Shown here piece after piece: positions 30,592-43,491 of a stretch of 64,000 nucleotides of DNA. Positions within the stretch are counted from its first letter, which is position 1. Every line of letters starts with the position of its first letter. The notes under the pieces were generated by a model that saw only the letters and a list, made by a program, of their open reading frames with translations, made no database searches and was not told the DNA's origin. This DNA comes from Escherichia phage ime, in the sequence record MN850576.1. One strand, given 5' to 3'. The position numbers were made by a program, and so were the translations under genes.

Positions 30592-33030
30592 TTAACGAGA
30601 AAAGGTTGCGTAGGCTTCTAGACGATACTGCTGGTCACCAGGGAACATAACACCTATAGAGGCTGTCCCTAGAATCCTGCCTTCCTTTCCAGACTCCATT
30701 CTGAACCCTACCCATCCTGAACTCCTTGCAGCCTCGATGTTGTCGCTATACCCGAAAGTGGCAAGATCGTCAACACCAGCCCCAAACAGCAACTGAAGCT
30801 GACTTCTCGGAAGCCCTATAATTTCAGGAATATACGCACCAAAGTACACCATCTGCCCTACCTTAGGACCGCTGCCGTACTCCATCGGTTTGCTTGTAGA
30901 GAAAGTCTTCATACCAGAAGTACCTGCCGGATTAGGGTATGCCCCGTTTGTTGCTGTACCTATCCACATTCTCCACTGTGGTGCCATCTGTTTGACAGTA
31001 AAAGATGTTGAAGACGTTTTGCGCCCTGCATCATCTGTAACTACAAACTTTATGGTGACATTCCCAGTAGCTTTAAATGTTACCAGTCCTGTGGTGGCAT
31101 CCACTGTTGCAATGTTGGTATTACTACTTTCCCAAGTCTTTCTAATCCCGGATACGTTGGAAGGGGTAATAGAAGGTTCCTGCATCTGCAGTTTACCACC
31201 CACAATCCCTATGCCGTTGCCCGGATTATACAGCACACCAACCTCGTCTATAATGTTCCCTGCTTTGAGACTATACTTCCTTGAGAAGTTGTAGGTTCCG
31301 TTATAAGTGTGTGTCCCTGAGAAGGTGACATCTGCCTTCCCGTAAGAGATGCAAACCAAAGCATACTTCCTGTCAGGCAACGTTTCTCCAGTCTCTGGGT
31401 GAGTTTTACCTACCTGGAACACACTCGGGTCAGTAGAGTCGTGACTATCACTAACGGAGCTTGGACCGCCCATCAACTGTGACAAACAATTCCTTACCCA
31501 TGTCCAGTTATTATCGCTGGAGAAGTCCACAGTCAAATCAAACACAACCCACTCATTTGGCTTCCACACAGGTGTTGTAATGGACTTGCCTACACCACCT
31601 CCTTGGAGTGTTGCCGACTGTTCGGTGATCAGGGCCGTATAGGCCAGAGTTCCTAAACTCAGAGTCTGGCTTGCTGTCCTCACTACCTTAGAATCAGCAT
31701 CTGTGAAGTTGTTGATGATTTGGAATGTGCCATAAGTGTTTTTACAGGTAATTCTGGCGTTCAGCGTGTCAATCTTCCTCACATCTGCCATAGCAGTGTT
31801 AGACACAGAGAAGTCAGAAGCTTTAGCTGAGTTTGCCGCAACAGCAGGATCAACGTTAAGAGTTGCGTTGAACTGACAGGCAGGGGTAACCAGCAGCTTG
31901 TTATCACCTATTTGCTTCCATGAAATACTTTGGACAGGTAGATTCCATTTAATACCTGAGAAAACTTTAGCAACCCTTGGCCCCAAAGCTCCAGTCCTGT
32001 TGTCTTTACAGCACATAGACATGGTGATCGTTGACGGAGTTGCCTGACCAAATAATTGCTGTGCTTTTGCAGAGGACATAGTGTAGAAATTGTCCTTAAC
32101 AAACTCATCAGCAGCTAAAGATCCATCAGCTCTCCACCACTGAACCTGGTACCCTGTTTTGTCCCAACCACCGACCTGCTTCAAGTCCTCCCAGGAGATT
32201 TCTAGATCCCCAGTGGTAGGGTTGATTGCAGCAGTTCCCGGTGTTCCGGGTGACCACAATGGAATATCGAACCACGCTGGTTTAACCGACTGCACTGCGC
32301 TGGGACCTATTGCGGCAGCAAGTTGCTGGCCCATCAATACGCGAGCATCTTTCACCAGACCCCACTCGATCATAGACCCAGAGTAACCTTCTTTCTTGTA
32401 GGCTGAGGATCCGTTCAAATGGATGAGTCGGCTTGTGCCAAAGTTATGTGCTCCACCACCGTTGTCGTCTGCAAAATTGGTTATGATTCTATCCCTGATA
32501 TTTTTCCATGCCCTGCCCCCAATCTCATAGTCATGGTCATAACATCTTTGCAGTGTTGTCCAGCAAATGATCGCCATCCTTCTACCATCGCTGAATCCAA
32601 AGGCCTGATCGTTAAGCTCTCTCCACAAGTAGCAGTTAGTGGTCCACATGGCCCTATGAATGTTAAACCAGTTTATAGATTTGGCTGAGTTGTCCCACTG
32701 AGTCCCAGGTAATTCAGGCCATACTGCATTAACCAGCATGTCTTCTGTTCCTGCATCAACCAAGAACCCTCTTACCTTCTTACCCATGCCTACCCTATCT
32801 TTTGCAATCCAGCTGCCAAACAATCTCAGTTTTGGACCGTAGACAACATCTTCCGGATGCTCAAAAGAAACATATTTTAGGTATATTGTAGGGTCACCAT
32901 AGGTGCCATCACAAACAGCTTTGTGCATGTTCTCGCCAAGGTCTAGACGAAGTCCTGTTACAACTTTAGACGTGTCGGTGAATTTGTCTGTTAAATCAAA
33001 CTCATACCACCACCAACCTGCACCCAACAA
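30592..33030 (-). CDS. putative tail fibre / receptor-binding protein with Big_2 (bacterial Ig-like) domain
   Basis: Large beta-rich ORF; segment NIATVDATTGLVTFKATGNVTIKFVVTDDAG fits a Big_2 fold. The ORF-track start (33150) overlaps the upstream gene by 91 nt; TTG at 33030 or ATG at 32931 are more plausible starts. Confidence 0.5.
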   Translation of the reverse strand: MLGAGWWWYEFDLTDKFTDTSKVVTGLRLDLGENMHKAVCDGTYGDPTIYLKYVSFEHPEDVVYGPKLRLFGSWIAKDRVGMGKKVRGFLVDAGTEDMLVNAVWPELPGTQWDNSAKSINWFNIHRAMWTTNCYLWRELNDQAFGFSDGRRMAIICWTTLQRCYDHDYEIGGRAWKNIRDRIITNFADDNGGGAHNFGTSRLIHLNGSSAYKKEGYSGSMIEWGLVKDARVLMGQQLAAAIGPSAVQSVKPAWFDIPLWSPGTPGTAAINPTTGDLEISWEDLKQVGGWDKTGYQVQWWRADGSLAADEFVKDNFYTMSSAKAQQLFGQATPSTITMSMCCKDNRTGALGPRVAKVFSGIKWNLPVQSISWKQIGDNKLLVTPACQFNATLNVDPAVAANSAKASDFSVSNTAMADVRKIDTLNARITCKNTYGTFQIINNFTDADSKVVRTASQTLSLGTLAYTALITEQSATLQGGGVGKSITTPVWKPNEWVVFDLTVDFSSDNNWTWVRNCLSQLMGGPSSVSDSHDSTDPSVFQVGKTHPETGETLPDRKYALVCISYGKADVTFSGTHTYNGTYNFSRKYSLKAGNIIDEVGVLYNPGNGIGIVGGKLQMQEPSITPSNVSGIRKTWESSNTNIATVDATTGLVTFKATGNVTIKFVVTDDAGRKTSSTSFTVKQMAPQWRMWIGTATNGAYPNPAGTSGMKTFSTSKPMEYGSGPKVGQMVYFGAYIPEIIGLPRSQLQLLFGAGVDDLATFGYSDNIEAARSSGWVGFRMESGKEGRILGTASIGVMFPGDQQYRLEAYATFSR

Positions 33031-33058
33031 TACTTTCTTACAACGCTGTGCGTCTGTA

Positions 33059-36000
33059 TCAGATATTCTCTTCCCCTGCAAAAGGTGAGTCAGCAAACTG
33101 ATAGTGCAGAGCGATCTCAAAAGGATGTGTGGATGTCCCGTTTTCTGCAAGAACTTGTTTACCTATCAGGTCGCACTTAATGATCATCACAACACGTTTG
33201 TATCCGTTTGTTACCGGAATTTGCATGGACATGGATGTCCCATCCATGTTTGATCTCAGTGCAGTCATGATGATATAAGGGTCAACTGCATTGCCCAAAG
33301 TCTCAGGACCGGGGATTATCTTATACTTCTTGACCTGCCCCATGATGTAGTCACTTGCGTAAGTTGCCTCATTCAAGCAAGATCCCCCACCAGGTAACTC
33401 ACCAGGTCCCCAGAAAAATGCGCCGTAACAGTTGTAGAACCACTTGTTAGGATCGTATTTATTCTTGAAGGTCTGAACCTCGTTGGCCTGTTTTGTCAAG
33501 AAAACCTGCGTGTCTGTGAAGATTGCAGGGTTTACTCTCGCCTGTCTTGGAGGGTAACCTGTAGTTTGGTTAAACCACAAATTACAAGAGTAATCCCTCA
33601 TATAGTCATAATCAGAGTATTTGTTTACATCTTCGTTCCAACACATGTTTAGGTTGGTACCGCCCATGCATACAATATATTCTGCGACATACTTATCACT
33701 TCTGGTAGGAATACCTATGAACCATCTGTTAACAGGCTCATCCCAAGCTGTGCGCTCATCTTTAACGCAGATAGCAATCCAGTCATGTGTTCCTGTTTTC
33801 TTGCACACATCTCGCTTCATGCCATAGTAGAACTCTTTAGTATTCGGCTCAGGTGCATTTATCAGGTAACTCCATGCCTGATTTGCATAAGTTCCATTGG
33901 TGCGTGGATCATGATCAAAGGCATACATGATGATCCTTTCCCCACCAAGATGTTCGCCAAGAGTAACTTTGACATTCACATCGCCGTAACCATTGCGAAC
34001 AACATCCATATTATCAATAGAGATACCTCTGGGCGTGTAGGCAATTTTCAGCGAGTTATCTTCACTAGTGCCGCCAAGTGTAATCCCTATGTTGTTTGTT
34101 GTCCCGTCGACATATCTTACTGTAGCTTCCCAGCGTATTCCGAAATATCCTGCATCATGGCTGACAATTTTCAGTGTACGAGCTCCCGGGTGAGGTTTTC
34201 CAGGATCAGGCCAAGGGTCTGGGTGTTCGTGAACAGTCAACGACGTTCCGTTCTGCTCATTAACCTGCAACATTTTACCACCCTTGCCATTAGGATTGAA
34301 CTCCCACAAGGCTTGTGTTTTCACAATATTGTCATACGTGGCGCGTCTTTGATCGTAGATCTCTTGGGTCACATCATAAGTGACTGATCCAGCATCCATT
34401 CTGTGGAGTCTGACCATATACGATGTATCCCCTTCTACTGCAGGTTGGGTCCCATTCAGCCCAAAGTATACAGTATCGTTAACATGGAACTGCTTGTTTC
34501 TACCAACGGTATGCCACTTGCCGTTGGACGGATACGCAGGAACTATGGTGTTCCAGTTCAAAGTCCTTGTCGTGTGAGTTCTGCCTGTGCCATGCTTGTC
34601 ATGATAGGTTATTTTTACAGAGTACAGGCCACGTCTGTTAACATTTCTGTTATACTGGGTAACAACAACTTCGTTGGCCCCGCCGTGGTTCCAGTTGGTG
34701 GAGAATTGGTAATTTGCATCTGTAACAACCGTACCTGCAGCATTCACCAGTTCAATCTTGTCAATGATGAACGTAGCTCCCTCTGGCTGAGGCTTCAATT
34801 TCATCTTGACCGTGTCACCAATGTAGATATTGCTAACACTACTAACACCATTAACGTCGAAAATATCATCAACGCCCCAACTGTCTACTGGGACATTTTT
34901 ATACCAATTCTCAGGAACCTCTGTGAACCCCTGACTATTAAGTCTGCCGCCAAACAGGTTATTAGAGCCTGCAAAACTTCCCCTTGGGATGCCTGACCAC
35001 CAAAGTTTGCCATTAACAACAGTAAAGGTCCCTAAGAAACCTTCTCTGTGGATACCCTGGAAATAAACACTTTCTGTCCAGCTTACTGGCATCCGTTGCT
35101 CGACGTATTTAGCCGTAGCCAGAGCCTGATAGTGAATAAAATTAGCCCTAGGACTGTTGTTTGCAGATTGTGCACCAATATCATTGCACAGATTGCGAGA
35201 GAAGCCACGATACTGTTTGGTGCCATTATTGAAGAAAATGCCACTTGTGCCGTATCCACGAGCCATTATCACCTCATGGGTGTAGGTGATATTTAAGGAA
35301 CGCCATGTGTCATCTCCCCAGACGTCTTGCCCGTAGAATACGTTAACAAGCTGTTGGTCATCAGGTTTGTGCATCCTTTCTGTGGCTATAATTGCACCAT
35401 TAGGTCCACACATGAACCCTTTCCATGTCTCGCCCACCGGGATGCCTTTAAACTGGTCAAGAGTCACATGCTCGGCTGGATAAACTAGTGTGTTTTTGCT
35501 GTTATTTCTTAAGAAATCGTAACCTGCAATCCAGAATCCGTTAGGACCACCAAAAATAACCGAGTTGTCATGCACCTCGCAGTTGATGCTTGGGTTTTTC
35601 CAAGGGCCTGTTTCAGGATTTTCCGATGTCTCGCCGATCTTTACGGGAGTTGCATGCTGATTTTTATCTACATGCAAAGATCCGTAGGTGTTGTTACCAG
35701 ACCCATACAGGTTCAGTATGCCAGTGCCTTCTGCCTCTGCAATAACCCAGACAGTGTTGTTAATACCACCCATCACCTCAACAAGGCGTTCTGGGTGGGT
35801 GTCAAGGTGCAATCCTTTAACAATCTGCTCTGGGAGTGGTGTCCACTCGTTTACGCAAACATCATTACCGCCTGCCGCAGTGGATCCGATAAGACCTGCA
35901 GTGCAGCCGATGTAGAAAAACTGGTTATCAAAAGTCCGGATCACAAACGCGCGGTCTGCTCTCCACACATGATCAACATTCCAGGCTGTTTCGCTCGGAT

Positions 36001-36226
36001 AGTTTATAGGGCTACGATCCCCAGTGCGGCACTCTCCGAACTTGTTATAGCCAGTAATATTAAGCTGACCATCATCAAAAAGTATAGCTAAGCTATTTAC
36101 ATAGGATACTGTGTTGCTTGTACCATCACTGTTGTCTATTGGGTATGACAGAACAGCAAGTTCCTTAATTCCACCCCTCTTATCGAGGAAATGACGACCA
36201 AGTTTTAGCAAAGGGATTGGAAGCAT
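33059..36226 (-). CDS. putative tail fibre / host-recognition protein (1055 aa)
   Basis: Very large G/N/T/W-rich ORF in the fibre cluster; no enzymatic motif recognised. Confidence 0.5.
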   Translation of the reverse strand: MLPIPLLKLGRHFLDKRGGIKELAVLSYPIDNSDGTSNTVSYVNSLAILFDDGQLNITGYNKFGECRTGDRSPINYPSETAWNVDHVWRADRAFVIRTFDNQFFYIGCTAGLIGSTAAGGNDVCVNEWTPLPEQIVKGLHLDTHPERLVEVMGGINNTVWVIAEAEGTGILNLYGSGNNTYGSLHVDKNQHATPVKIGETSENPETGPWKNPSINCEVHDNSVIFGGPNGFWIAGYDFLRNNSKNTLVYPAEHVTLDQFKGIPVGETWKGFMCGPNGAIIATERMHKPDDQQLVNVFYGQDVWGDDTWRSLNITYTHEVIMARGYGTSGIFFNNGTKQYRGFSRNLCNDIGAQSANNSPRANFIHYQALATAKYVEQRMPVSWTESVYFQGIHREGFLGTFTVVNGKLWWSGIPRGSFAGSNNLFGGRLNSQGFTEVPENWYKNVPVDSWGVDDIFDVNGVSSVSNIYIGDTVKMKLKPQPEGATFIIDKIELVNAAGTVVTDANYQFSTNWNHGGANEVVVTQYNRNVNRRGLYSVKITYHDKHGTGRTHTTRTLNWNTIVPAYPSNGKWHTVGRNKQFHVNDTVYFGLNGTQPAVEGDTSYMVRLHRMDAGSVTYDVTQEIYDQRRATYDNIVKTQALWEFNPNGKGGKMLQVNEQNGTSLTVHEHPDPWPDPGKPHPGARTLKIVSHDAGYFGIRWEATVRYVDGTTNNIGITLGGTSEDNSLKIAYTPRGISIDNMDVVRNGYGDVNVKVTLGEHLGGERIIMYAFDHDPRTNGTYANQAWSYLINAPEPNTKEFYYGMKRDVCKKTGTHDWIAICVKDERTAWDEPVNRWFIGIPTRSDKYVAEYIVCMGGTNLNMCWNEDVNKYSDYDYMRDYSCNLWFNQTTGYPPRQARVNPAIFTDTQVFLTKQANEVQTFKNKYDPNKWFYNCYGAFFWGPGELPGGGSCLNEATYASDYIMGQVKKYKIIPGPETLGNAVDPYIIMTALRSNMDGTSMSMQIPVTNGYKRVVMIIKCDLIGKQVLAENGTSTHPFEIALHYQFADSPFAGEENI

Positions 36227-36274: not shown

Positions 36275-38020
36275 TTAACGTTGTGCAATTACTACGTCTA
36301 CGATATCACCAACACCACAATACGTTAATTGCAGCAAGGTAACACTGTTAGCCTTGTTGTTAATAACAGGTGTTGCCGACAGGATAGCATACTTATCGTG
36401 CAAAGTCACGTTGTGACCTACAGCATCCTGAATTACATAGATAACCGCAGTGAATGGATAAGGTTTATCTTCCGCTGATGTCCCAGGCCACTGTCCTATT
36501 GTAAAATCCCCTTTCGCGTGAACAACATACATACTGGCCTGCCCGTTAGGTGTCCATGTCCCACTGGACGCGTCAACCTCCTCTAAATCAAAATCTACCT
36601 TTCCTGCGTGGAAAGTAGGGGCAGTAATGGTTTTACCCGCCTCAATTTCTTGAGAGGTGGTTATCTTGCCACTGGAGTTAATGCCATTACAGACAAAGTT
36701 GACATTAGAGAAGTCAGGCAACCACCCAGTCACCGTGCCGGATATTTCAAGGTTGTGAACAGAGGTGGTGCCAGTCCCTGCTGCGTTTAAACTGACATCT
36801 CCATTTACCTGCAAGTTGCGGGTAACGTTGCAGTTTTCAGAGTTTGCAGTTGTTGCAGTTAAAGTGGTTGTTGTCAGCTCGGTAATTACACCTTTGTTGG
36901 CTGTAAGCCCTTCTCCTTCAAAAGTTGCACGCTCATTGACTCTTAAGGTATTCAGAGCTATGTTTTGGATAGAGGCCGTACCTCGAATAACTACAGACCC
37001 GCCAACCTCCAAATCGCCATTTATCAATGCATCACCAGTGCTTTCAATATAGCTAGGGTAGATCATGGTGCCATCGACAGAGTATGTTATCCCTGTAACG
37101 GTACCTGTCACCTCAAGGTTCTTAACCCTGGTGGTCCCATCTACCTGCAATGTCGGTTCGGTTGCTGCCTTCATGGCATTACCACGAATGTACACGTAGT
37201 CAAAAAAGTTATTACCCAGACCATCAAAATGCACATCGTTATTATTAGCCACTGGTTTCCCAGAAGTTATAGTGTCAGCTATAACCCTGTGGGTGGACAC
37301 TTCATGAGGTTGCAGCTCTGTACTTCTCCAGTCTGCATGCTTAGGATCGCTCCACGCAAAAGTAAGTGTAGAAGTATTTGCCGTGAGGATTAGATTCCTA
37401 AAGCGTGCAGTAGAATCTGCCCCATTAACAGGTCCATGTAAGGTAAGGGTGCCACCAACTATAGTGTTAGCGAGTTCTGTAAGACCTTTTACCACCAAAG
37501 ACCCTACAGTAACTTTCATCCCCTCCATGGCTTTAAATATGCTATCAACATAGTCAACAACAAACTCTGTGTTTGCTATGGACTCTGACTTATCGTCCAT
37601 TGGAGGTGTAGGTACTCGTGGGTCACCTTCGAACCTCGGGCTGTTAAGTTTTGCGTAGTATTTTGCCATTACTGCAGAGTCGGTATATAATCTCCAGTTT
37701 GGAGATTGTGAAGGATCTGCTGGCATTCTAACCGGGTTAGATTTTGATGCTGCGGGAGCGTACCACCACTGAGGGCCTGTGTCCCCTTTAAACTCGTACA
37801 GCTGGTTAAAAACTGTTGTGGATGCACCATACGCCCAAGGGATCGGTGGCGTTTTAAAATAAAGGGTGTCAAGCATGGCTTTTCGTACCGTAGGGATGGT
37901 GGTCCCATCCTCTACGACAACTTCATCCACAGCGTTACCGTTGACAACCAAGTGCAAACGTTCAGAATCAACAATTACTTGATCTACCGCCTGCTCAAAG
38001 CTTGTCATGTCTTGCGCCAT
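36275..38020 (-). CDS. tail fibre protein (581 aa)
   Basis: Beta-rich repetitive sequence (GxxTGT-type repeats, LTATTANSENCNVT); lies in the tail-fibre cluster. Confidence 0.55.
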   Translation of the reverse strand: MAQDMTSFEQAVDQVIVDSERLHLVVNGNAVDEVVVEDGTTIPTVRKAMLDTLYFKTPPIPWAYGASTTVFNQLYEFKGDTGPQWWYAPAASKSNPVRMPADPSQSPNWRLYTDSAVMAKYYAKLNSPRFEGDPRVPTPPMDDKSESIANTEFVVDYVDSIFKAMEGMKVTVGSLVVKGLTELANTIVGGTLTLHGPVNGADSTARFRNLILTANTSTLTFAWSDPKHADWRSTELQPHEVSTHRVIADTITSGKPVANNNDVHFDGLGNNFFDYVYIRGNAMKAATEPTLQVDGTTRVKNLEVTGTVTGITYSVDGTMIYPSYIESTGDALINGDLEVGGSVVIRGTASIQNIALNTLRVNERATFEGEGLTANKGVITELTTTTLTATTANSENCNVTRNLQVNGDVSLNAAGTGTTSVHNLEISGTVTGWLPDFSNVNFVCNGINSSGKITTSQEIEAGKTITAPTFHAGKVDFDLEEVDASSGTWTPNGQASMYVVHAKGDFTIGQWPGTSAEDKPYPFTAVIYVIQDAVGHNVTLHDKYAILSATPVINNKANSVTLLQLTYCGVGDIVDVVIAQR

Positions 38021-38029
38021 GATTTCTCC

Positions 38030-38296
38030 TTAAGCTTTTTGCTCTTCGTTTTTAACGTGGTCAGGGTGCTGGCAACCCCACCGGAGCGAGATGAATTTGC
38101 TAATAAGCTGGGGGCAAGCTACTGAAGGCGCGTATATCCACGCATACCATTCAGGAAGCGTATCATTATACCCCATATGAATAAACACCCCAGTCATCAC
38201 CGCCATGCCTATGTTCGACCATAGCTTAGATTGGGATACTTTCGTAGGGTCATCAGATGCCGCAACCAGTCCCCATAAAAACTGAGTTAGTTTCAT
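38030..38296 (-). CDS. small membrane protein (holin-like candidate)
   Basis: 88 aa; two or three hydrophobic segments and a charged C-terminus (KNEEQKA). Confidence 0.35.
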   Translation of the reverse strand: MKLTQFLWGLVAASDDPTKVSQSKLWSNIGMAVMTGVFIHMGYNDTLPEWYAWIYAPSVACPQLISKFISLRWGCQHPDHVKNEEQKA

Positions 38297-38307: not shown

Positions 38308-39354
38308 TTAAGCATAAGATATAGTGATCCATTGACCGTTTACAAGTTTTTGGATAGCACCTGTCCAGTAATCACCTTGATAAGGGTGTTTATAAGCGTA
38401 GTTACCAGAGCACATCACATGTCCAGGGTAGACTCTTGACTCTCTGTAGGTGGTTTTGAAACGGTTCGCTATCCTTACATCGTCAACCCCTCTACTGGGC
38501 ATAGGGACAGTAAGGTTACCACTACCGTCTGCGCTGTTACCGTTTACCCTGCGGACCACGTTTCTTCCACCAACGGTTGCATATTGGCCTCTAACGGTTT
38601 CATCGTTACAATCAACTCTTCCACCTATTTGAGCGCTTCCGCAGGATTGTTGTCCGTTAACAGTGGCTCTTGGTATCGTGACCGCATTGGCATTTGCAGA
38701 GGAACTTTTTGCATCGTTGCATTCAAGATTTCCTTGGATAGCCAGTCTTGCACGGTTGGCAGTTATAGCATTGAGCTTCATAGCCGAAAACACAGGCTGC
38801 CCACCAGAAGGTTGAAATCTCCAACGGAACCCGTCTATTTGGTGAGAAGGATCATCAAGGTCTGTGCCGTCAGCACCACCGATGTTGTCCATAATCCAGA
38901 AGTCCATCGTCGTCTTGTCTGGAGTTATGGTGGTATATATTGCCGCATTGTCTGTTGACGCAGATGCAAACTCGATTCTTTGAAGGCCTAAAGTTTGAGT
39001 CTGAGTCATTATGTCTCCAGACTTGTCAACATACAGATCGTCCATTTCTTCAGGCGAGTATACATTGAGAACTTGACGTGCAGCAGCTTTGTCTGGAACG
39101 TCTGCTAGATTATTAGTGACCCTTAAGAATCTATTATCCCATCCTGGGACAACATCTTCTGTTAAATGCTTTAACCACGCAGAAAGCATGTGAAGTTCAA
39201 AGTTAACAACTTCACATGCCACTCTTTGTGTCATATCCCAACCTTTCAATCTCTCTTCTTTTTTTGGTTGAGACTTATTCAACTCTCCCGTATTTTCAAG
39301 CACAACATCCTGATTGGCCCAAATATCAAGAGGGATAACTGGTTTAGTCATCAC
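38308..39354 (-). CDS. tail fibre protein, paralog B
   Basis: 348 aa; paralogous to 40366..41406, with identical C-terminal motif QKLVNGQWIT and shared PLDIWA / GDxMTG / LGLQRI motifs. Confidence 0.65.
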   Translation of the reverse strand: MMTKPVIPLDIWANQDVVLENTGELNKSQPKKEERLKGWDMTQRVACEVVNFELHMLSAWLKHLTEDVVPGWDNRFLRVTNNLADVPDKAAARQVLNVYSPEEMDDLYVDKSGDIMTQTQTLGLQRIEFASASTDNAAIYTTITPDKTTMDFWIMDNIGGADGTDLDDPSHQIDGFRWRFQPSGGQPVFSAMKLNAITANRARLAIQGNLECNDAKSSSANANAVTIPRATVNGQQSCGSAQIGGRVDCNDETVRGQYATVGGRNVVRRVNGNSADGSGNLTVPMPSRGVDDVRIANRFKTTYRESRVYPGHVMCSGNYAYKHPYQGDYWTGAIQKLVNGQWITISYA

Positions 39355-39400
39355 GTTCTCCTGAGAAAATTCCTTAGGACTATTTTAACACTTTAGGGAA

Positions 39401-39430
39401 CAAAATGCAAGAACGGAGTCCTTTCCGTTC
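39401..39430 (-). terminator. possible terminator (weak)
   Basis: Hairpin GAACGG...CCGUUC with an interrupted U-run on the minus strand, downstream of the 104-aa gene. Confidence 0.3.
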
Positions 39431-39440
39431 TGACCTTTGT

Positions 39441-39755
39441 TTACCTTTTACTATGCTCTACGAGCATGTGCAAAATCTTTTGTACATCGGCTCTGATGCC
39501 TGAGACATCTGTCCTGACATCCTGCTTAAGGTCGTTAATATCGGCCTCTAGCTTGCTTAACCGGGTCTCTATAACGGAATCAAGTTTATCTTTTGTAACC
39601 ATACTGTTTTTCACTAAGATGAGGTCTTTCTCCAGCTCATCCAACCTCTTGGAAATGCCTTTCCATTTGGTGTGCCACTGGTTGAAAGCCCATACACAGA
39701 TCGGGACAACGGTGCCCATGCAGATACCGTACAATGCCGCCAAATCCAACTCCAC
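39441..39755 (-). CDS. membrane-anchored coiled-coil protein (i-spanin-like or fibre-associated candidate)
   Basis: 104 aa; N-terminal transmembrane helix LAALYGICMGTVVPICVWAF followed by heptad-like coiled coil. Confidence 0.35.
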   Translation of the reverse strand: MELDLAALYGICMGTVVPICVWAFNQWHTKWKGISKRLDELEKDLILVKNSMVTKDKLDSVIETRLSKLEADINDLKQDVRTDVSGIRADVQKILHMLVEHSKR

Positions 39756-39766
39756 AACACCTCCTC

Positions 39767-40351
39767 TTAGAGGGTAGGTCGCTCCGGGAAGAAAATGTCA
39801 GGGGCTTTAGATGTATCTATTTCAAGAAGTTTTACCCTGTACATTTTCAAATCTCTGATGTTACGTTTCTGGTCATCAGTAAGATCATATTCAAGGTCAA
39901 TCATGTCTTGATAGGCACCAATTCTAGCAGTAGCCCAAGCAAGTTCTGTCTCTATGACACCCTCTGCCTGTTGAACAAAGAATTCATTGTCTGTGACAAA
40001 TTCATCACCAACTAAACGCAAAGCGTCGTGGTGAAGCATAATGTTTTCTGGTACCTCTTCTTTTTTGGCGATAACCACACGAAGACCTGGAGCAGGCCAT
40101 AAGGCATCAGGTTCTTCTGTAGATGTCTTAAGAATTCCCTTCTCGTCAACAAGTAGGAAGATACACCCTGGATTTTCTTGTCGTAATGTTCGTGACTGCA
40201 CATACCAATCACCATCATCATTACGTAAAAAATACCCAGTGTATGCGGTGTAATCCTCGACCTCTTGAGGGGTCAGCTCCTTGGTTTCCTTGTTGGAGTG
40301 GTATTCGCCAGATCCCGGTTGGTAAAGTTTAAACTCTTGAAGTATTTTCAT
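39767..40351 (-). CDS. tail fibre assembly chaperone (Tfa-like)
   Basis: 194 aa; C-terminal ...LKMYRVKLLEIDTSKAPDIFFPERP resembles the conserved Tfa C-terminus as I recall it; located between two fibre paralogs. Confidence 0.55.
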   Translation of the reverse strand: MKILQEFKLYQPGSGEYHSNKETKELTPQEVEDYTAYTGYFLRNDDGDWYVQSRTLRQENPGCIFLLVDEKGILKTSTEEPDALWPAPGLRVVIAKKEEVPENIMLHHDALRLVGDEFVTDNEFFVQQAEGVIETELAWATARIGAYQDMIDLEYDLTDDQKRNIRDLKMYRVKLLEIDTSKAPDIFFPERPTL

Positions 40352-40365
40352 GCTAGTCCTCCGAT

Positions 40366-41406
40366 CTATGCATAATTAACAGTGATCCATTGACCATTTA
40401 CAAGTTTTTGTAAAGGTCCTGCCCAGTAGGTTGAACCACGCATCTCTTTTTTGTCACCGAAATGCCAGCCTGTGACAACGTATCCGTTGCGGATTGGAGA
40501 TTCAGAAACGCCGTCCACAAGTCTTGCACCGATTCTGATGTCTTGCACACCTGTCTGCGGGATAGTGATCGTTACATCACCGTTACCGTTAGCCGTCACT
40601 CCATTCACGGAGCGCACCACATTTCTGTTACCGACAACACAGTGCTGGCTTCTTACAACCATACTGTCACAACTTGCACCACCATTGACATATACTGACC
40701 CAGCCGTCAACTGACTGGCCACATTACAGTTGGTGAATGTTGCTGTATTGCTGATAGTAAGGTTATTGCACCTCATGTTATCGACAACTTCAACATTGCC
40801 TACCACTTTCAACAGCGCACGATTAGCCGTGATCGCGTTAAGGTACATCAAAGTGAACTCTGGATTAATATCCGGCTGAGTTGGCTGGAATCTCCAACGA
40901 AACGCATCTACTGTAGATGTACCACCATCATCAAACGACCCGGTATTATCACTTAACCCAAAGTCGAGGGTTGTCTTATCTGGGCCAATAGTTGTCTCTA
41001 TCCAAGCCTTATCTGTCTCGGCAGCTTTAAAGTTGATACGTTGCAACCCCAAGGGGCCTGTCATTGTATCACCTGTAACTTTTACATACCTGGCGTCTGC
41101 CTCTTCCTTAGTGATAATCCCAAGGTTTCTACGGGCAACAGGAATGTTCAAAAGATCGCTCAAGTTATTATCACGTACCAGATAACGGCCTTCTTGAGCT
41201 GGGATCTGCTCGTCAGCAATGTATTTTGCCCAAGTCCCGAGCATATTGAAAATATAGTTAAGTTCTTCACATGAGGGCTTTTGACCAAGATCCCAACCTT
41301 TTCTCCACAAATCATCAATCGGGCGTAGCCTGTTCTGTCTGTGGGTGTTAGGCAGAACCTGATCCTCCTCTGCCCAAATCTCTAATGGAAAACTAGGTTT
41401 TGACAT
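40366..41406 (-). CDS. tail fibre protein, paralog A
   Basis: 346 aa; paralog of 38308..39354. Confidence 0.65.
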   Translation of the reverse strand: MSKPSFPLEIWAEEDQVLPNTHRQNRLRPIDDLWRKGWDLGQKPSCEELNYIFNMLGTWAKYIADEQIPAQEGRYLVRDNNLSDLLNIPVARRNLGIITKEEADARYVKVTGDTMTGPLGLQRINFKAAETDKAWIETTIGPDKTTLDFGLSDNTGSFDDGGTSTVDAFRWRFQPTQPDINPEFTLMYLNAITANRALLKVVGNVEVVDNMRCNNLTISNTATFTNCNVASQLTAGSVYVNGGASCDSMVVRSQHCVVGNRNVVRSVNGVTANGNGDVTITIPQTGVQDIRIGARLVDGVSESPIRNGYVVTGWHFGDKKEMRGSTYWAGPLQKLVNGQWITVNYA

Positions 41407-41418
41407 TTTATCTCCTGA

Positions 41419-43491
41419 TTATGAGAAGTCTGGCGGGACAACATCTTCTACATACCCTTTCAGAGCAACCTGCCCCATATGAAGCACGGTAGAATCTCTA
41501 GCGGTAACAGTGATGCTGTCAGACATTACTTGCGGGTATGCCCACACATACTGTTTTACCTCAGGATATCTATACTCTATAGTTGCCATGTTTCCGCAAA
41601 TACATCTCCATAAAAATTCTTGGTAATTCCTGGTTGGGTCGTAACCATATACCGGAGCAAGCTCTTTACTAGGAACGAACCCTGCAAGGTATTGTATTTC
41701 AGACGGTTGCCAACCTAACTTAACGATAGGTATGTTTACAGACTCTTTTGCCTTTTCAATACCTCCCTGCATCACCCAATCGTAGCACTCGGTGCAGAAG
41801 AAATCAAGAGCACCTGCTTCCTTTTTATATTGGTCAGCAAGGTTAAGCTTTTGCGTAAGCTCGGTTTCCATAATGGTTGGGAAAAACAGCAGAGCTGTCA
41901 TCTGAGCTGATGCAGCGTGTGCCTTTATTGCCTTTGAAATAGCCGCAATACGAGCGCCAAGCTTACCACGACAAAATGCTACATACTTATCGTAAACACC
42001 GCCAGTTTTAGGATCGTCAATAGTCCCAATATCTAATGCATACTCGCCTGTCTCATCATAAAACGCCTGTTTTGTAGGGTAATCATAAATACAAGGTCTA
42101 CGAGTATCGGTATTGTACCACCACCACGGTTCACCAACCTGCATAATCACTGGCAGGTTGTTTCTCATAGCGGCTGATGCAAAATTCTTAAATACTGCAG
42201 TAAGGAAATTCATACCCTCTTCAATGGTTGGAGACAGGAGGTAGCTACAAGGTGTATACCCTGTTTTAGCGTAGTTATCGTTCCAGTCTCTTTGGGTCCA
42301 TTCCAACGGGCAGGCATCGCTGAAAAGCTCAAAACTTACAGATTGCATAACGTCGAAGTTATGTCGTTTGGCATTGTACATAAAATCATCATGCCATTTA
42401 TAAGCTGCAGCGTTTAGCGCTCCTGTTCTGTTTATAGACCATTGGGTTCCTGACCATGTGTAGTCATAATAATGACTCATACCAACATAATGGTTTATGG
42501 TTCCGGTATAGCCCAGACGCTTGATATTGTTCAACACCCTTAAAGGAGACACGTTCCACATATCATCATATGCGGTGCAGATCCCAACATCGTGCTCTCT
42601 CACCTGGATATTGTTAAGTTGCATCATTTTCCAGCCTGTGTCTGGCTGAAGCAGATCTAGGCGCAACTCACACTCTACATTTTCCGTTCTCGGGTCTGTG
42701 CTATTACTTACCCAGTCTTTAGGCATAAGCGGTATTAAAATCCTTCTCACCTGCCGAGGATCAACACCCATCATGCTGTTGTTCTGGTCCATCCCGACGC
42801 AGTCCTCAAAATCAATATGAATTTCTGCAACATTCTTATCCTCTGAGATGCTGACAGCATATTGAGCTAAAGGAACATAGATGATTGTGCCATCAACAAG
42901 GTCTACAGTCATAATCATCTTTTCAGGAGTGGAGAAGTTGCTGGCGTTGGTTATTGACATTCTGAACCAGAGCTTGGTGTTTCTCATCTCATAATGATCA
43001 TCAAACCCAATGCCGAAATGGTCATACTTGTCAACTGTTTCCCAAATGCACCCAGCCATACCTCCATATGTTCTTGACACTAAACGGTTAATACAACAGT
43101 TGTTATCTGCAACAATACAGGTACTTTCAGTCTGCTGAGTAGTTGTAACCCAATATCTTGGGTGGAACATTCTCTCCTCAACAGTATCCCAAGATATCCT
43201 GTCGAGATTCTCATCTGAAACTATTGTACATTTCGCCCTTTGTGTTCCAATCATTACCCCTTGGGATTTTGATGAAAACTCCATAAAGAAGCTTCTTGGT
43301 AACCTGTTGGGTAATTTGTCAACAATTTCCACGGGGATCTCAACACTGGTTGCCCCAATTGGGATAGTTACATCGCCCTCAACATGATTATAATCTCTAC
43401 CAGGAACGGCAGTATCCTGAACTGTTCGGTAATGAAACTGTGCAGCCATTGTAGAGTAATCACGGTAAGGTTTAAAAACAGCTGTTGCCAT
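41419..43491 (-). CDS. structural protein with N-terminal Calx-beta-like domain
   Basis: 690 aa; DYNHVEGDVTIPIGATSVEIPVEIVD fits the Calx-beta signature. Confidence 0.45.
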   Translation of the reverse strand: MATAVFKPYRDYSTMAAQFHYRTVQDTAVPGRDYNHVEGDVTIPIGATSVEIPVEIVDKLPNRLPRSFFMEFSSKSQGVMIGTQRAKCTIVSDENLDRISWDTVEERMFHPRYWVTTTQQTESTCIVADNNCCINRLVSRTYGGMAGCIWETVDKYDHFGIGFDDHYEMRNTKLWFRMSITNASNFSTPEKMIMTVDLVDGTIIYVPLAQYAVSISEDKNVAEIHIDFEDCVGMDQNNSMMGVDPRQVRRILIPLMPKDWVSNSTDPRTENVECELRLDLLQPDTGWKMMQLNNIQVREHDVGICTAYDDMWNVSPLRVLNNIKRLGYTGTINHYVGMSHYYDYTWSGTQWSINRTGALNAAAYKWHDDFMYNAKRHNFDVMQSVSFELFSDACPLEWTQRDWNDNYAKTGYTPCSYLLSPTIEEGMNFLTAVFKNFASAAMRNNLPVIMQVGEPWWWYNTDTRRPCIYDYPTKQAFYDETGEYALDIGTIDDPKTGGVYDKYVAFCRGKLGARIAAISKAIKAHAASAQMTALLFFPTIMETELTQKLNLADQYKKEAGALDFFCTECYDWVMQGGIEKAKESVNIPIVKLGWQPSEIQYLAGFVPSKELAPVYGYDPTRNYQEFLWRCICGNMATIEYRYPEVKQYVWAYPQVMSDSITVTARDSTVLHMGQVALKGYVEDVVPPDFS

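Follow-up and report, generated by a model that had tools for sequence, protein, structure and literature searches.

Paralogous short tail fibre genes have been described in phage rV5 and its relatives. Kropinski et al. 2013 (Virol J 10:76) reported the paralogy of rV5 gp30 and gp33 (42.3% identity) and put forward the hypothesis of two LPS chemotypes for the pair, and Maffei et al. 2021 (PLoS Biol, S5C-D Fig) described a "short tail fiber locus" in the BASEL Vequintavirus phages, with two paralogous short tail fibres (STFs) and a chaperone, related to Mu GpS/GpU. Phages of the rV5 type are E. coli phages with a broad host range; they have been isolated widely and are used in therapy and biocontrol cocktails, and knowing whether both short fibres bind different LPS-core structures would help to explain their host breadth and would guide fibre engineering. 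Since the pair and the dual-receptor idea have both been in print since 2013, the existence of the pair adds nothing new. The additions made here are narrower: the replacement of a membrane protein gene by one of the two fibre genes, the separate promoter of that gene, the asymmetric evolution of the two copies, and a mismatch between the text and the mass spectrometry (MS) table of the 2013 report.

The window analysed here, a stretch of 64,000 nucleotides of Escherichia phage ime (MN850576.1), comes from a Vequintavirus: it has 99.5% nucleotide identity to rV5_ev146 and Bas48, and the annotation of rV5 and Bas48 corresponds gene for gene to the locus under study. This is the rV5-like myophage short tail fibre locus, the same one as in rV5 (gp33, gp32, gp31, gp30 and gp29), whose proteins are 98–100% identical to those in the window without any material difference. 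All five genes lie on the minus strand as follows: STF-A (40366..41406, 346 aa, the rV5 gp33 orthologue) carries the name "short tail fiber protein" in the Bas48 annotation, is gp033 in that of rV5, and matches phrog_4465 ("tail fiber protein") with E=1.8e-171, residues 1–346 aligning with positions 1–342 of the 342-position profile. It is directly followed by the gene for a tail fibre assembly chaperone (Tfa; 39767..40351, 194 aa, the gp32 orthologue), with identical synteny in six single-copy phages, and then by a gene for a small protein (39441..39755, 104 aa, the gp31 orthologue). STF-B (38308..39351, 347 aa, the gp30 orthologue) matches the same profile with E=5.4e-166 (residues 2–348 in GTG-start numbering, again positions 1–342 of 342), but it is not directly followed by a Tfa gene; the next gene (38030..38296, 88 aa, the gp29 orthologue) is annotated as a membrane protein, matches phrog_1322 with E=2.7e-32, is 51–67% identical to "membrane protein" genes of Av-05, R7 and BIS47, is weakly hydrophobic in the window (maximum KD19 1.05) and forms the conserved downstream flank of the locus. 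The original prediction had drawn the two fibre ORFs at 40366–41406 and 38308–39354; both exist on the minus strand, but the second starts at the ATG at 39351 and not at the GTG at 39354 (which would give 348 aa), because the spacing of an AGGAG Shine-Dalgarno sequence fits the ATG, the position of the GTG is GCG in rV5, and the database records annotate the ATG. Next to the locus, the gp27 homologue of the window phage carries a 2-bp frameshift, which is additional to the rV5 arrangement.

The two fibres are clear paralogs, as had been predicted: they align end to end with 43% amino acid identity (E=1e-95, far beyond chance; 52% identity in nucleotides), and both are full-length members of phrog_4465. 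The expectation of a common N-terminal region with diverged central parts turned out to be nearly the reverse of what the alignment gives. Columns 1–110 are 38% identical and columns 111–210 are the best conserved (54%, with a peak of 70%), while the least conserved are columns 211–255 (23%) and 301–330 (27%). The 10-residue motif QKLVNGQWIT is present in both proteins, as predicted, but it is family-wide and not special to the pair: the core residues Q333, G338 and W340 of the consensus PLQKLVNGQWxTV are conserved in all aligned Vequintavirinae and Phapecoctavirus STFs, and the phiTE STF and Mu GpS both have a recognisable form of the motif. In most genomes its nucleotide identity between the paralogs is 29–30 of 30. 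The N-terminal part is homologous to the phiTE STF (9cuy), which STF-A residues 1–108 match with E=1.4e-19 and the STF-B N-terminus with E=2e-8 (both by phmmer), and which the STF family profile matches with E=1e-30 over positions 1–137. The C-terminal part is homologous to Mu GpS (5yvq): STF-A residues 286–343 match it with E=1.7e-6, and the family profile matches GpS 435–503 with a domain i-E of 2.6e-8. STF-B alone, compared with the PDB by phmmer, gave no Mu GpS match at E<=1, although it does carry the motif Q-K-x-[VI]-N-G-x-W. These fold assignments rest on sequence comparison, since an AlphaFold2 model of STF-B from a 7-sequence alignment had a pLDDT of 30 and a pTM of 0.18 and was unusable.

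The prediction of a Tfa-like gene and a small membrane/coiled-coil gene between the fibres was borne out. The gp32 orthologue is the sole Tfa in the locus; it matches PF02413 (Caudo_TAP) with E=9e-12 (45.7 bits against a cutoff of 22.1) in the conserved C-domain, residues 121–192, matches phrog_136 with E=2.2e-36, and is 33% identical to the Tfa proteins of Av-05 and R7 and 30% to the Phapecoctavirus Tfa. A phmmer comparison of this protein with the PDB gave spurious matches only. The gp31 orthologue (phrog_5345, E=1.1e-48; 33% identical to the 104-aa genes of Av-05, R7 and BIS47) has a single hydrophobic segment at residues 5–23 (KD19 = 1.9) followed by a Leu/Ile-rich stretch that is 39% charged and almost without Pro or Gly, and its place beside the Tfa gene is conserved across the Vequintavirinae. 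With one chaperone and two fibre genes, an identical C-terminal motif and a central segment of up to 70% identity, it might be asked whether STF-A and STF-B assemble into heterotrimers, nucleated at the common motif by the single chaperone. We think this improbable: the genes have separate promoters, the proteins have indels in the shaft and an overall identity of 43%, homotrimers are the only possible state of the single-copy homologues, and no precedent was found in solved relatives. Homotrimers are the more plausible state for each of the two fibres.

Comparison with single-copy relatives separates the two genes. STF-A corresponds in both position and sequence to the one STF of other Vequintavirinae, of which it is the orthologue (46–51% identical to the single-copy STFs of Av-05, R7, BIS47, TH18 and GAP31, and 35% to that of an Erwinia phage), and STF-B is an additional copy that evolves faster and is confined to the genus Vequintavirus (37–43% and 32%, respectively). 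The single-STF loci (Avunavirus Av-05, Seunavirus PVP-SE1/GAP31, Mydovirus BIS47, Henunavirus, and the Phapecoctavirus/phi92-like phages) have in common with the window the STF, the Tfa and the 104-aa TM/coiled-coil gene; their membrane protein and lateral fibre flanks are homologous, and conservation extends to the N-terminus and the C-terminal motif of the STF. At the STF-B position, every single-fibre genus instead has a gene for a 157-aa polytopic membrane protein (m157, phrog_7451), without an intergenic terminator or promoter. STF-B occupies the m157 slot, and the locus is not the product of a simple tandem duplication. The predicted duplication of a cassette is not supported either; the fibre gene alone is extra and it replaced another gene. 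We considered m157 as a remnant of a second fibre, but it is an unrelated polytopic membrane protein.

The duplication itself is genuine, but it is old and nothing unusual in this genus. All ~115 Vequintavirus records contain both copies, with two places in each record, and so does a deep Vequintavirus lineage, in which the orthologues are 87% (A) and 78% (B) identical. Where STF-A and STF-B share a residue the same codon is used in 41% of cases, and synonymous sites are saturated. The A clade and the B clade each have 100% bootstrap support, and the clade that unites them has only ~60% NJ bootstrap support, so STF-B may have arisen by duplication within the lineage or by capture from an unsampled relative. 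Among 5.8 billion proteins, the search for an outside donor of STF-B gave only orthologues, STF-A and one Seunavirus-type STF, with STF-A the nearest non-orthologue, and tblastn of STF-B against phages found nothing closer than STF-A. Searches of IMG/VR and metagenome contigs for more divergent two-fibre lineages gave only 95–99% relatives. Gene-wide concerted evolution was rejected, with 202 sites supporting orthology against 24 concerted and 27 third-topology sites.

STF-B also has transcription signals of its own. Between gp31 and STF-B a scan finds a terminator-like hairpin (39410..39431, minus strand) followed by TTGCATTTT; it is absent from the published list of rV5 terminators. In both FV3 and the divergent L012 lineage the stem has substitutions that compensate each other and preserve it, and the T-rich tail is invariant. 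Downstream of the hairpin, ~30 nt upstream of the STF-B start, is the late-promoter-like motif TGTTAAAATA (39381..39390, minus strand; consensus TGKTAAAATA), which reads TGCTAAAATAG in the L012 lineage and is the published rV5 P030, a putative late promoter (Kropinski 2013 Table S4C). The consensus occurs 3 times in the window (expected: 0.34), each time on the coding strand, and the matches at STF-B and upstream of gp36 were both confirmed to be intergenic.

No genome examined has a damaged copy of either fibre gene, where the original prediction had allowed for one carrying disabling changes, and both genes are under strong purifying selection: within the main clade dN/dS is 0.017–0.029 for STF-A and 0.047–0.068 for STF-B. 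There, both fibres are among the most conserved tail genes and have low allelic variation; according to Maffei 2021, it is the three largest lateral fibres that carry the allelic variation. As the two short fibres are among the least variable tail proteins in the genus, they do not explain host-range differences within it, and the proposal that they determine such differences finds no footing here. The picture of a recently duplicated host-range cassette, or of a pair in which one copy is decaying, has adjacent paralogs with a common motif to recommend it, but it is refuted by the saturated synonymous sites, the fixation of both copies in the whole genus and its deep lineage, the dN/dS values of at most 0.07 in two intact genes, the gain of a fibre gene alone in place of another gene, and the low allelic variation in the main clade; we give it almost no credence.

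The two copies have not evolved symmetrically. At 129 alignment columns that are invariant in five single-copy genera, 16 positions have changed and become fixed only in B and 6 only in A, and 8 of the 16 fall in the first 68 residues; the replacements specific to B are concentrated in the N-terminal docking domain, where they also affect the RPIDDLW..KGWD region that is otherwise invariant. In phiTE the STF N-terminus docks on baseplate wedge 1 and the long fibre contacts the STF (PDB 9cuy/9mjn). Receptor binding might thus not be the primary task of STF-B: it could act as an adaptor or structural fibre that attaches elsewhere on the baseplate and, for instance, braces or anchors the lateral fibres encoded beside it, a reading that would also suit its own promoter and its place directly upstream of gp29 and the lateral fibre gene gp28. 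However, STF-B has kept the whole fibre architecture down to the Mu-GpS-like C-terminal motif, and no part of it is better conserved than the tip, as is expected of a ligand-binding end, and we regard an adaptor role as distinctly unlikely.

From residue 291 to the end, the tip of each paralog keeps 93% conservation over the deepest split, whereas the two paralogs are 44% identical in this part, a pattern that fits two different constrained functions. The A tip is 57–62% identical to those of Av-05 and Phapecoctavirus, and the B tip 42–43%. Do the two tips nevertheless bind the same receptor? Maffei 2021 found that all tested BASEL Vequintavirinae, whether they have one or two STFs, are equally dependent on waaC and waaG, failing on both mutants, and suggested one shared secondary receptor. 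These results and the similar architecture and length of the two fibres are what would be expected if both have one ligand, the LPS outer-core glucose, and the second copy serves only to increase the number or avidity of the fibres. We consider such redundancy unlikely, if less so than an adaptor role, given the tip divergence across a split with saturated synonymous sites and the 8 otherwise invariant docking-domain residues that B has changed. Dual receptor use by STF-A and STF-B, as published for rV5 gp30 and gp33 in 2013, is a reasonable hypothesis.

It is also probable that both fibres are part of the virion, but the proteomic support that is often cited for this is not visible in the supplementary MS table of the 2013 paper, in the copy examined. 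The text of Kropinski 2013 names gp30, gp32 and gp33 as detected in the virion, whereas the 19 loci in that copy of its MS table do not include 30, 32 or 33; six diagnostic tryptic peptides of gp30 and gp33 were sought in the rV5 MS supplement and none is present. A literature search found no independent virion proteomics of a two-fibre Vequintavirus.

The explanation that best accounts for these observations, and which we hold with moderate confidence, is that STF-A and STF-B are trimeric baseplate fibres served by one shared Tfa, the old STF-B probably binding a second conserved ligand. The N-terminal ~110 residues of each would make up a globular joint of the phiTE type, by which the fibre docks on the baseplate wedge, and the C-terminal ~65 residues a Mu-GpS-type distal domain that ends in PLQKLVNGQWxTV. 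The Mu-type Tfa (gp32) is proposed to initiate trimerisation at this conserved C-terminus, and one chaperone could therefore serve both fibres. STF-A would be the ancestral orthologue with a tip type common to single-fibre relatives, which depend on LPS outer-core glucose. STF-B would be an old extra copy that displaced the membrane protein gene, acquired a terminator and a late promoter of its own, and evolved faster, particularly in the domain that docks on the wedge, with a distal tip that differs from that of STF-A yet is strongly conserved; its most likely role would be recognition of a further conserved ligand on the cell envelope, such as an LPS core of another chemotype, and not the tuning of a variable host range. 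A stronger version, which we offer tentatively, is that STF-B is no redundant duplicate and has been neofunctionalised through the replacement of m157 (a core gene of the whole subfamily) in the Vequintavirus ancestor, its own terminator and late-promoter unit, re-tuned docking and a second ligand, with micro gene conversion possible at the C-terminus. If this is true, the virion would carry two structurally distinct short-fibre rings served by one chaperone, the change in docking would end the competition of STF-B with STF-A for the same site, and conversion, if it occurred, would have been confined to the ~30-nt C-terminal motif and kept both fibres compatible with the chaperone.

Outside the rV5-like phages and their single-STF relatives, the locus can be compared with three known systems. 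T4 gp12 is a functional analogue, as an LPS-core-binding baseplate fibre; Kropinski 2013 reported HHpred similarity of gp30 and gp33 to it (1PDI, probabilities 98.4% and 97.7%); our phmmer and hmmsearch profile searches of the PDB (E<=0.1–1) retrieved no T4 gp12 chain, and T4 differs in that it has one gp12 gene and uses gp57A instead of a Tfa. The phiTE STF (9cuy/9mjn) has an N-terminal docking domain homologous to those of STF-A and STF-B and also has the C-terminal motif, but it is a 554-aa protein with a long coiled coil and Ig-like domains, present as a single copy in a flagellotropic phage. Mu GpS/GpU (5yvq) shares the homologous C-terminal ~65 residues and a Caudo_TAP chaperone gene immediately downstream of the fibre gene, and the Mu TFA binds the distal fibre and remains in the virion (PMC9608196); most of the fibre body is unrelated, and the window locus has a single chaperone. 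An invertible cassette of the Mu G-segment or P1 C-segment type was rejected, as both fibre genes are complete with their own starts on the same strand; no significant inverted repeats flank the fibres, the one pair found being 18 nt long with 78% complementarity. Where Gin-mediated inversion of the Mu G segment alternates S/U and S'/U', the window phage has both fibre genes complete, co-oriented and constitutively present.

The two fibre genes, STF-A (40366-41406, minus strand, 346 aa) and STF-B (38308-39354, minus strand, 348 aa as an ORF), are genuine paralogs, since the short tail fibre proteins they encode are 43% identical over their whole length (E=1e-95) and each gives a full-length match to PHROG 4465, "tail fiber protein". 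Between them on the same strand lie the gene for a 194-aa tail fibre assembly chaperone (Tfa; 39767-40351), which matches phrog_136 and, above the gathering score, Caudo_TAP PF02413 (E=9e-12), and a gene for a 104-aa protein (39441-39755) whose N-terminal part has a single hydrophobic segment and whose remainder is charged and helix-prone. The core of the original prediction, two fibre paralogs with a Tfa-like gene and a small membrane/coiled-coil gene between them, is thus real. It had the STF-B gene right and its start wrong: translation starts at ATG 39351 (347 aa), with an AGGAG 6 nt upstream, and not at GTG 39354, which is GCG in phage rV5; the records annotate the ATG. STF-B is followed by an 88-aa gene (38030-38296) and a 581-aa fibre gene (36275-38020), and STF-A is preceded by a gene for a 690-aa fibre or sheath-like protein (41419-43491), all on the minus strand. 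In rV5 numbering these genes are, in order of transcription, gp34, gp33 (STF-A), gp32 (Tfa), gp31, gp30 (STF-B), gp29 and gp28.

Two neighbouring fibre genes deserve mention. The gp34 homologue (41419-43491) carries the TIM-barrel and N-terminal domains of the Pfam "non-contractile tail sheath protein" (E=4e-80) plus Calx-beta, and is an N4 gp65-like deacetylase-domain fibre, a type reported as the NGR glycan binder in Vequintavirus and Justusliebigvirus (bioRxiv 10.64898/2026.04.02.716166). The homologue of rV5 gp27, a giant Ig-like/intimin-domain lateral fibre (1878 aa in rV5), lies at 30592-36226 on the minus strand and is split into two overlapping ORFs of 1055 and 852 aa by a 2-bp deletion (GGGG[AT]AAGAG) relative to phage Bas48, between 33073 and 33072; the region has the same total length in phage Alma. 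The deletion is either a genuine inactivating lateral-fibre frameshift or a sequencing error.

Where do the two fibres differ? The paralogs had been described as sharing an N-terminal region and diverging centrally, but a sliding identity profile along their alignment gives close to the reverse: the N-terminal third is only 38% identical and the central segment is the best conserved at 54% (peak 70%), with divergence highest in alignment columns 211-255 and 301-330. Both proteins do have the same C-terminal QKLVNGQWIT, but it is not special to the pair. Its core is conserved in 11/11 aligned short tail fibres, which represent six Vequintavirinae lineages and one Phapecoctavirus (consensus PLQKLVNGQWxTV, with Q333, G338 and W340 invariant), and it is recognisable in the phiTE STF and Mu GpS, so by sequence it is a family signature.

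The position of STF-B is informative about its origin. The order STF, Tfa, 104-aa TM/coiled-coil gene, 134-157-aa gene, ~88-aa membrane gene, lateral fibre is common to six Vequintavirinae phages with a single fibre, which represent four or more genera. The 104-aa gene in it is a homologue of gp31 (33% identity) and the ~88-aa gene of gp29 (51-67%). The additional gene (L008:6949-7422, L009:6997-7470, L010:6847-7320, L015:6020-6493, L016:5961-6434 and L017:5894-6295 in these loci) lies between them in all of the single-STF Vequintavirinae phages examined, with a length of 134 aa in the Erwinia phage, and encodes a polytopic membrane protein with at least three hydrophobic segments (phrog_7451); a search for fibre homology in the 157-aa protein found none, and it is unrelated to the STFs. 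Its slot in the window, 38308-39440, is exactly where STF-B sits, and the 157-aa gene was not found in the window. Genes of this type occur in 107 phage records and in every other Vequintavirinae genus, including phiTE and Septuagintavirus. The gene appears to be missing from rV5-like genomes, because only 16 Escherichia-phage records have it, in a collection with ~100 rV5-like genomes from Escherichia phages, and the Escherichia records among the matches listed are all non-Vequintavirus. As judged from these comparisons, STF-B is a gene replacement rather than a tandem duplication. Single-STF phages carry three small membrane proteins within their tail-fibre cluster.

By tblastn, only Vequintavirus has two STF places per record; there is a single one in Avunavirus, Seunavirus, Mydovirus, Henunavirus, TH18, Phapecoctavirus and the other listed relatives. 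A divergent Vequintavirus lineage from public assemblies shares the window's two-fibre arrangement; its STF-A and STF-B are 87% and 78% identical to their orthologues there, and synonymous sites are saturated. STF-A and STF-B themselves have 52% nucleotide identity and use the same codon at 41% of shared residues, and a neighbour-joining tree gives bootstrap values of 100% to the A clade, 100% to the B clade and ~60% to A+B, the longer branch leading to B. Because of the divergent lineage, the saturation, the nucleotide identity and the clade bootstraps, the sequences place the fibre duplication as old, earlier than the deepest sampled Vequintavirus split, and the suggestion that it was recent is not supported. 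The duplication most simply falls on the Vequintavirus stem; alternatively, STF-B may have been captured from an unsampled relative. Among 5.8 billion proteins searched, its nearest non-orthologue is STF-A.

Both genes are intact in 10/10 genomes, with no disabling changes in either copy. Nei-Gojobori dN/dS in these genomes is 0.017-0.029 for STF-A and 0.047-0.068 for STF-B, which indicates strong purifying selection on both and 2-3-fold faster amino-acid change in STF-B. Five single-copy genera have 129 invariant alignment columns in common; at 16 of these a change is fixed in B alone, and at 6 in A alone. The first 68 residues, in the domain homologous to the wedge-1-binding phiTE joint, hold half of the changes specific to B. 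Conservation within each paralog is highest in the distal ~55 residues (93% across the deep split), where A and B are nevertheless only 44% identical to each other; the A tip is 57-62% identical to the Av-05 and Phapecoctavirus tips and the B tip 42-43%. Tips alike within and unlike between copies fit redundancy or an arms race less well than they fit two distinct functions, each under constraint. The STF-A tip (residues 287-344, window 40375-40548) is also 58-64% identical to fibre tips of other phage groups, namely the unrelated ~52-kb Salmonella/Escherichia myophages BP63, JEP7 and SE13, Phapecoctavirus and Av-05, whose fibre proteins are otherwise much less similar or unrelated, and this points to exchange of a tip module between groups.

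The 30 nt encoding QKLVNGQWIT (38323-38352 in B, 40381-40410 in A) are identical between A and B at 29-30/30 positions in most genomes, and in both genes GTA, CAA and CTT of the main clade correspond to GTC, CAG and mostly CTG in the divergent lineage. This hints at a micro gene conversion in the past, limited to the chaperone-related motif, a reading that is unproven because gene-wide four-taxon sites favour orthology (202, against 24 concerted sites and 27 that fit the third topology), the probability of three concerted sites within 30 nt (P ~0.03, uncorrected and estimated from site counts) is not significant after multiple-window correction, and FV3 and one metagenomic phage have unshared changes in the stretch.

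STF-B probably forms a separate late transcription unit. The 89-bp gap upstream of it is the sole sizeable intergenic space in the five-gene locus from gp33 to gp29 (the others are 9-14 nt) and contains, on the minus strand, a terminator-like hairpin (39431-39410) followed by TTGCATTTT and the late-promoter motif TGTTAAAATA (39390-39381). The latter matches the rV5 late-promoter core, which has three matches in the window versus 0.34 expected, and is late promoter P030 in Table S4C of Kropinski 2013 (PMC3606486). Across rV5, Aya, FV3 and the divergent lineage (alignment A3 of this gap) the stem is kept by compensatory substitutions, and the TTGCATTTT tail and promoter core are invariant. The hairpin, directly upstream of P030 (both within 39381-39431), is missing from the published rV5 terminator list.

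Both paralogs are likely incorporated in the virion. According to the main text of Kropinski 2013 (PMC3606486), gp30, gp32 and gp33 were detected by virion proteomics, as were gp36, 42, 43, 45 and 49. The accessible part of its supplementary DTASelect MS table (Additional file 5) has 19 loci (61, 60, 64, 53, 52, 133, 79, 152, 82, 34, 237, 41, 62, 235, 106, 37, 1, 27 and 228, locus 64 being taken from the main text); loci 30, 32 and 33 are absent from these, as are, despite the main text, the other five, and 0/6 diagnostic peptides were found in the accessible part of the MS supplement. For two-fibre Vequintavirus phages our literature search found no independent virion proteomics. The virion of Septuagintavirus W70 contains its homologous single STF in abundance.

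With the family profile, the phiTE STF gives matches at both termini and Mu GpS over the last ~65 residues. The Tfa of Mu uses its N-domain to bind the distal fibre and its conserved C-domain to drive trimerisation, and it remains on the virion (PMC9608196); the gp32 Pfam match covers this C-domain. Beyond these homologies, we infer a mechanism in which gp32 would nucleate trimerisation of both fibres at their common C-terminal motif, both would dock on the baseplate via their N-terminal joints, and STF-A would keep the ancestral receptor while STF-B binds a second conserved ligand.

The 8-kb surroundings of the locus are 99.5% identical to rV5_ev146 and CarlMeissner (Bas48) and match 118 records, essentially all Vequintavirus. 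About 16-21 "Campylobacter phage" records (host Campylobacter jejuni; for example MG065639, MG065654, MG065662, MG065674 and MG065690) have ~98% identity to genomes of rV5-like E. coli phages or of Phapecoctavirus, and probably have wrong host labels or represent contaminating coliphages; the Seunavirus-like Salmonella phage record PQ002170 has a Demerecviridae taxonomy line. The paralog observation is correct, yet it is an ordinary feature of a well-sampled phage genus. Bas48 is annotated with "short tail fiber protein" twice and a "tail fiber chaperone", and both the two-fibre locus and its interpretation are already in the literature, as Kropinski et al. 2013 (PMC3606486) reported an HHpred resemblance of gp30 and gp33 to T4 gp12 and Maffei et al. 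2021 also described the locus. Dual receptor use is a decade-old, putative idea. A role as host-range determinant is not supported, as the two short tail fibres have little allelic variation compared with the three largest lateral fibre genes (Maffei et al. 2021). For the same authors, the Vequintavirus STF locus has its homologue in the single-fibre locus of phi92-like phages and, more remotely, in Mu GpS/GpU.
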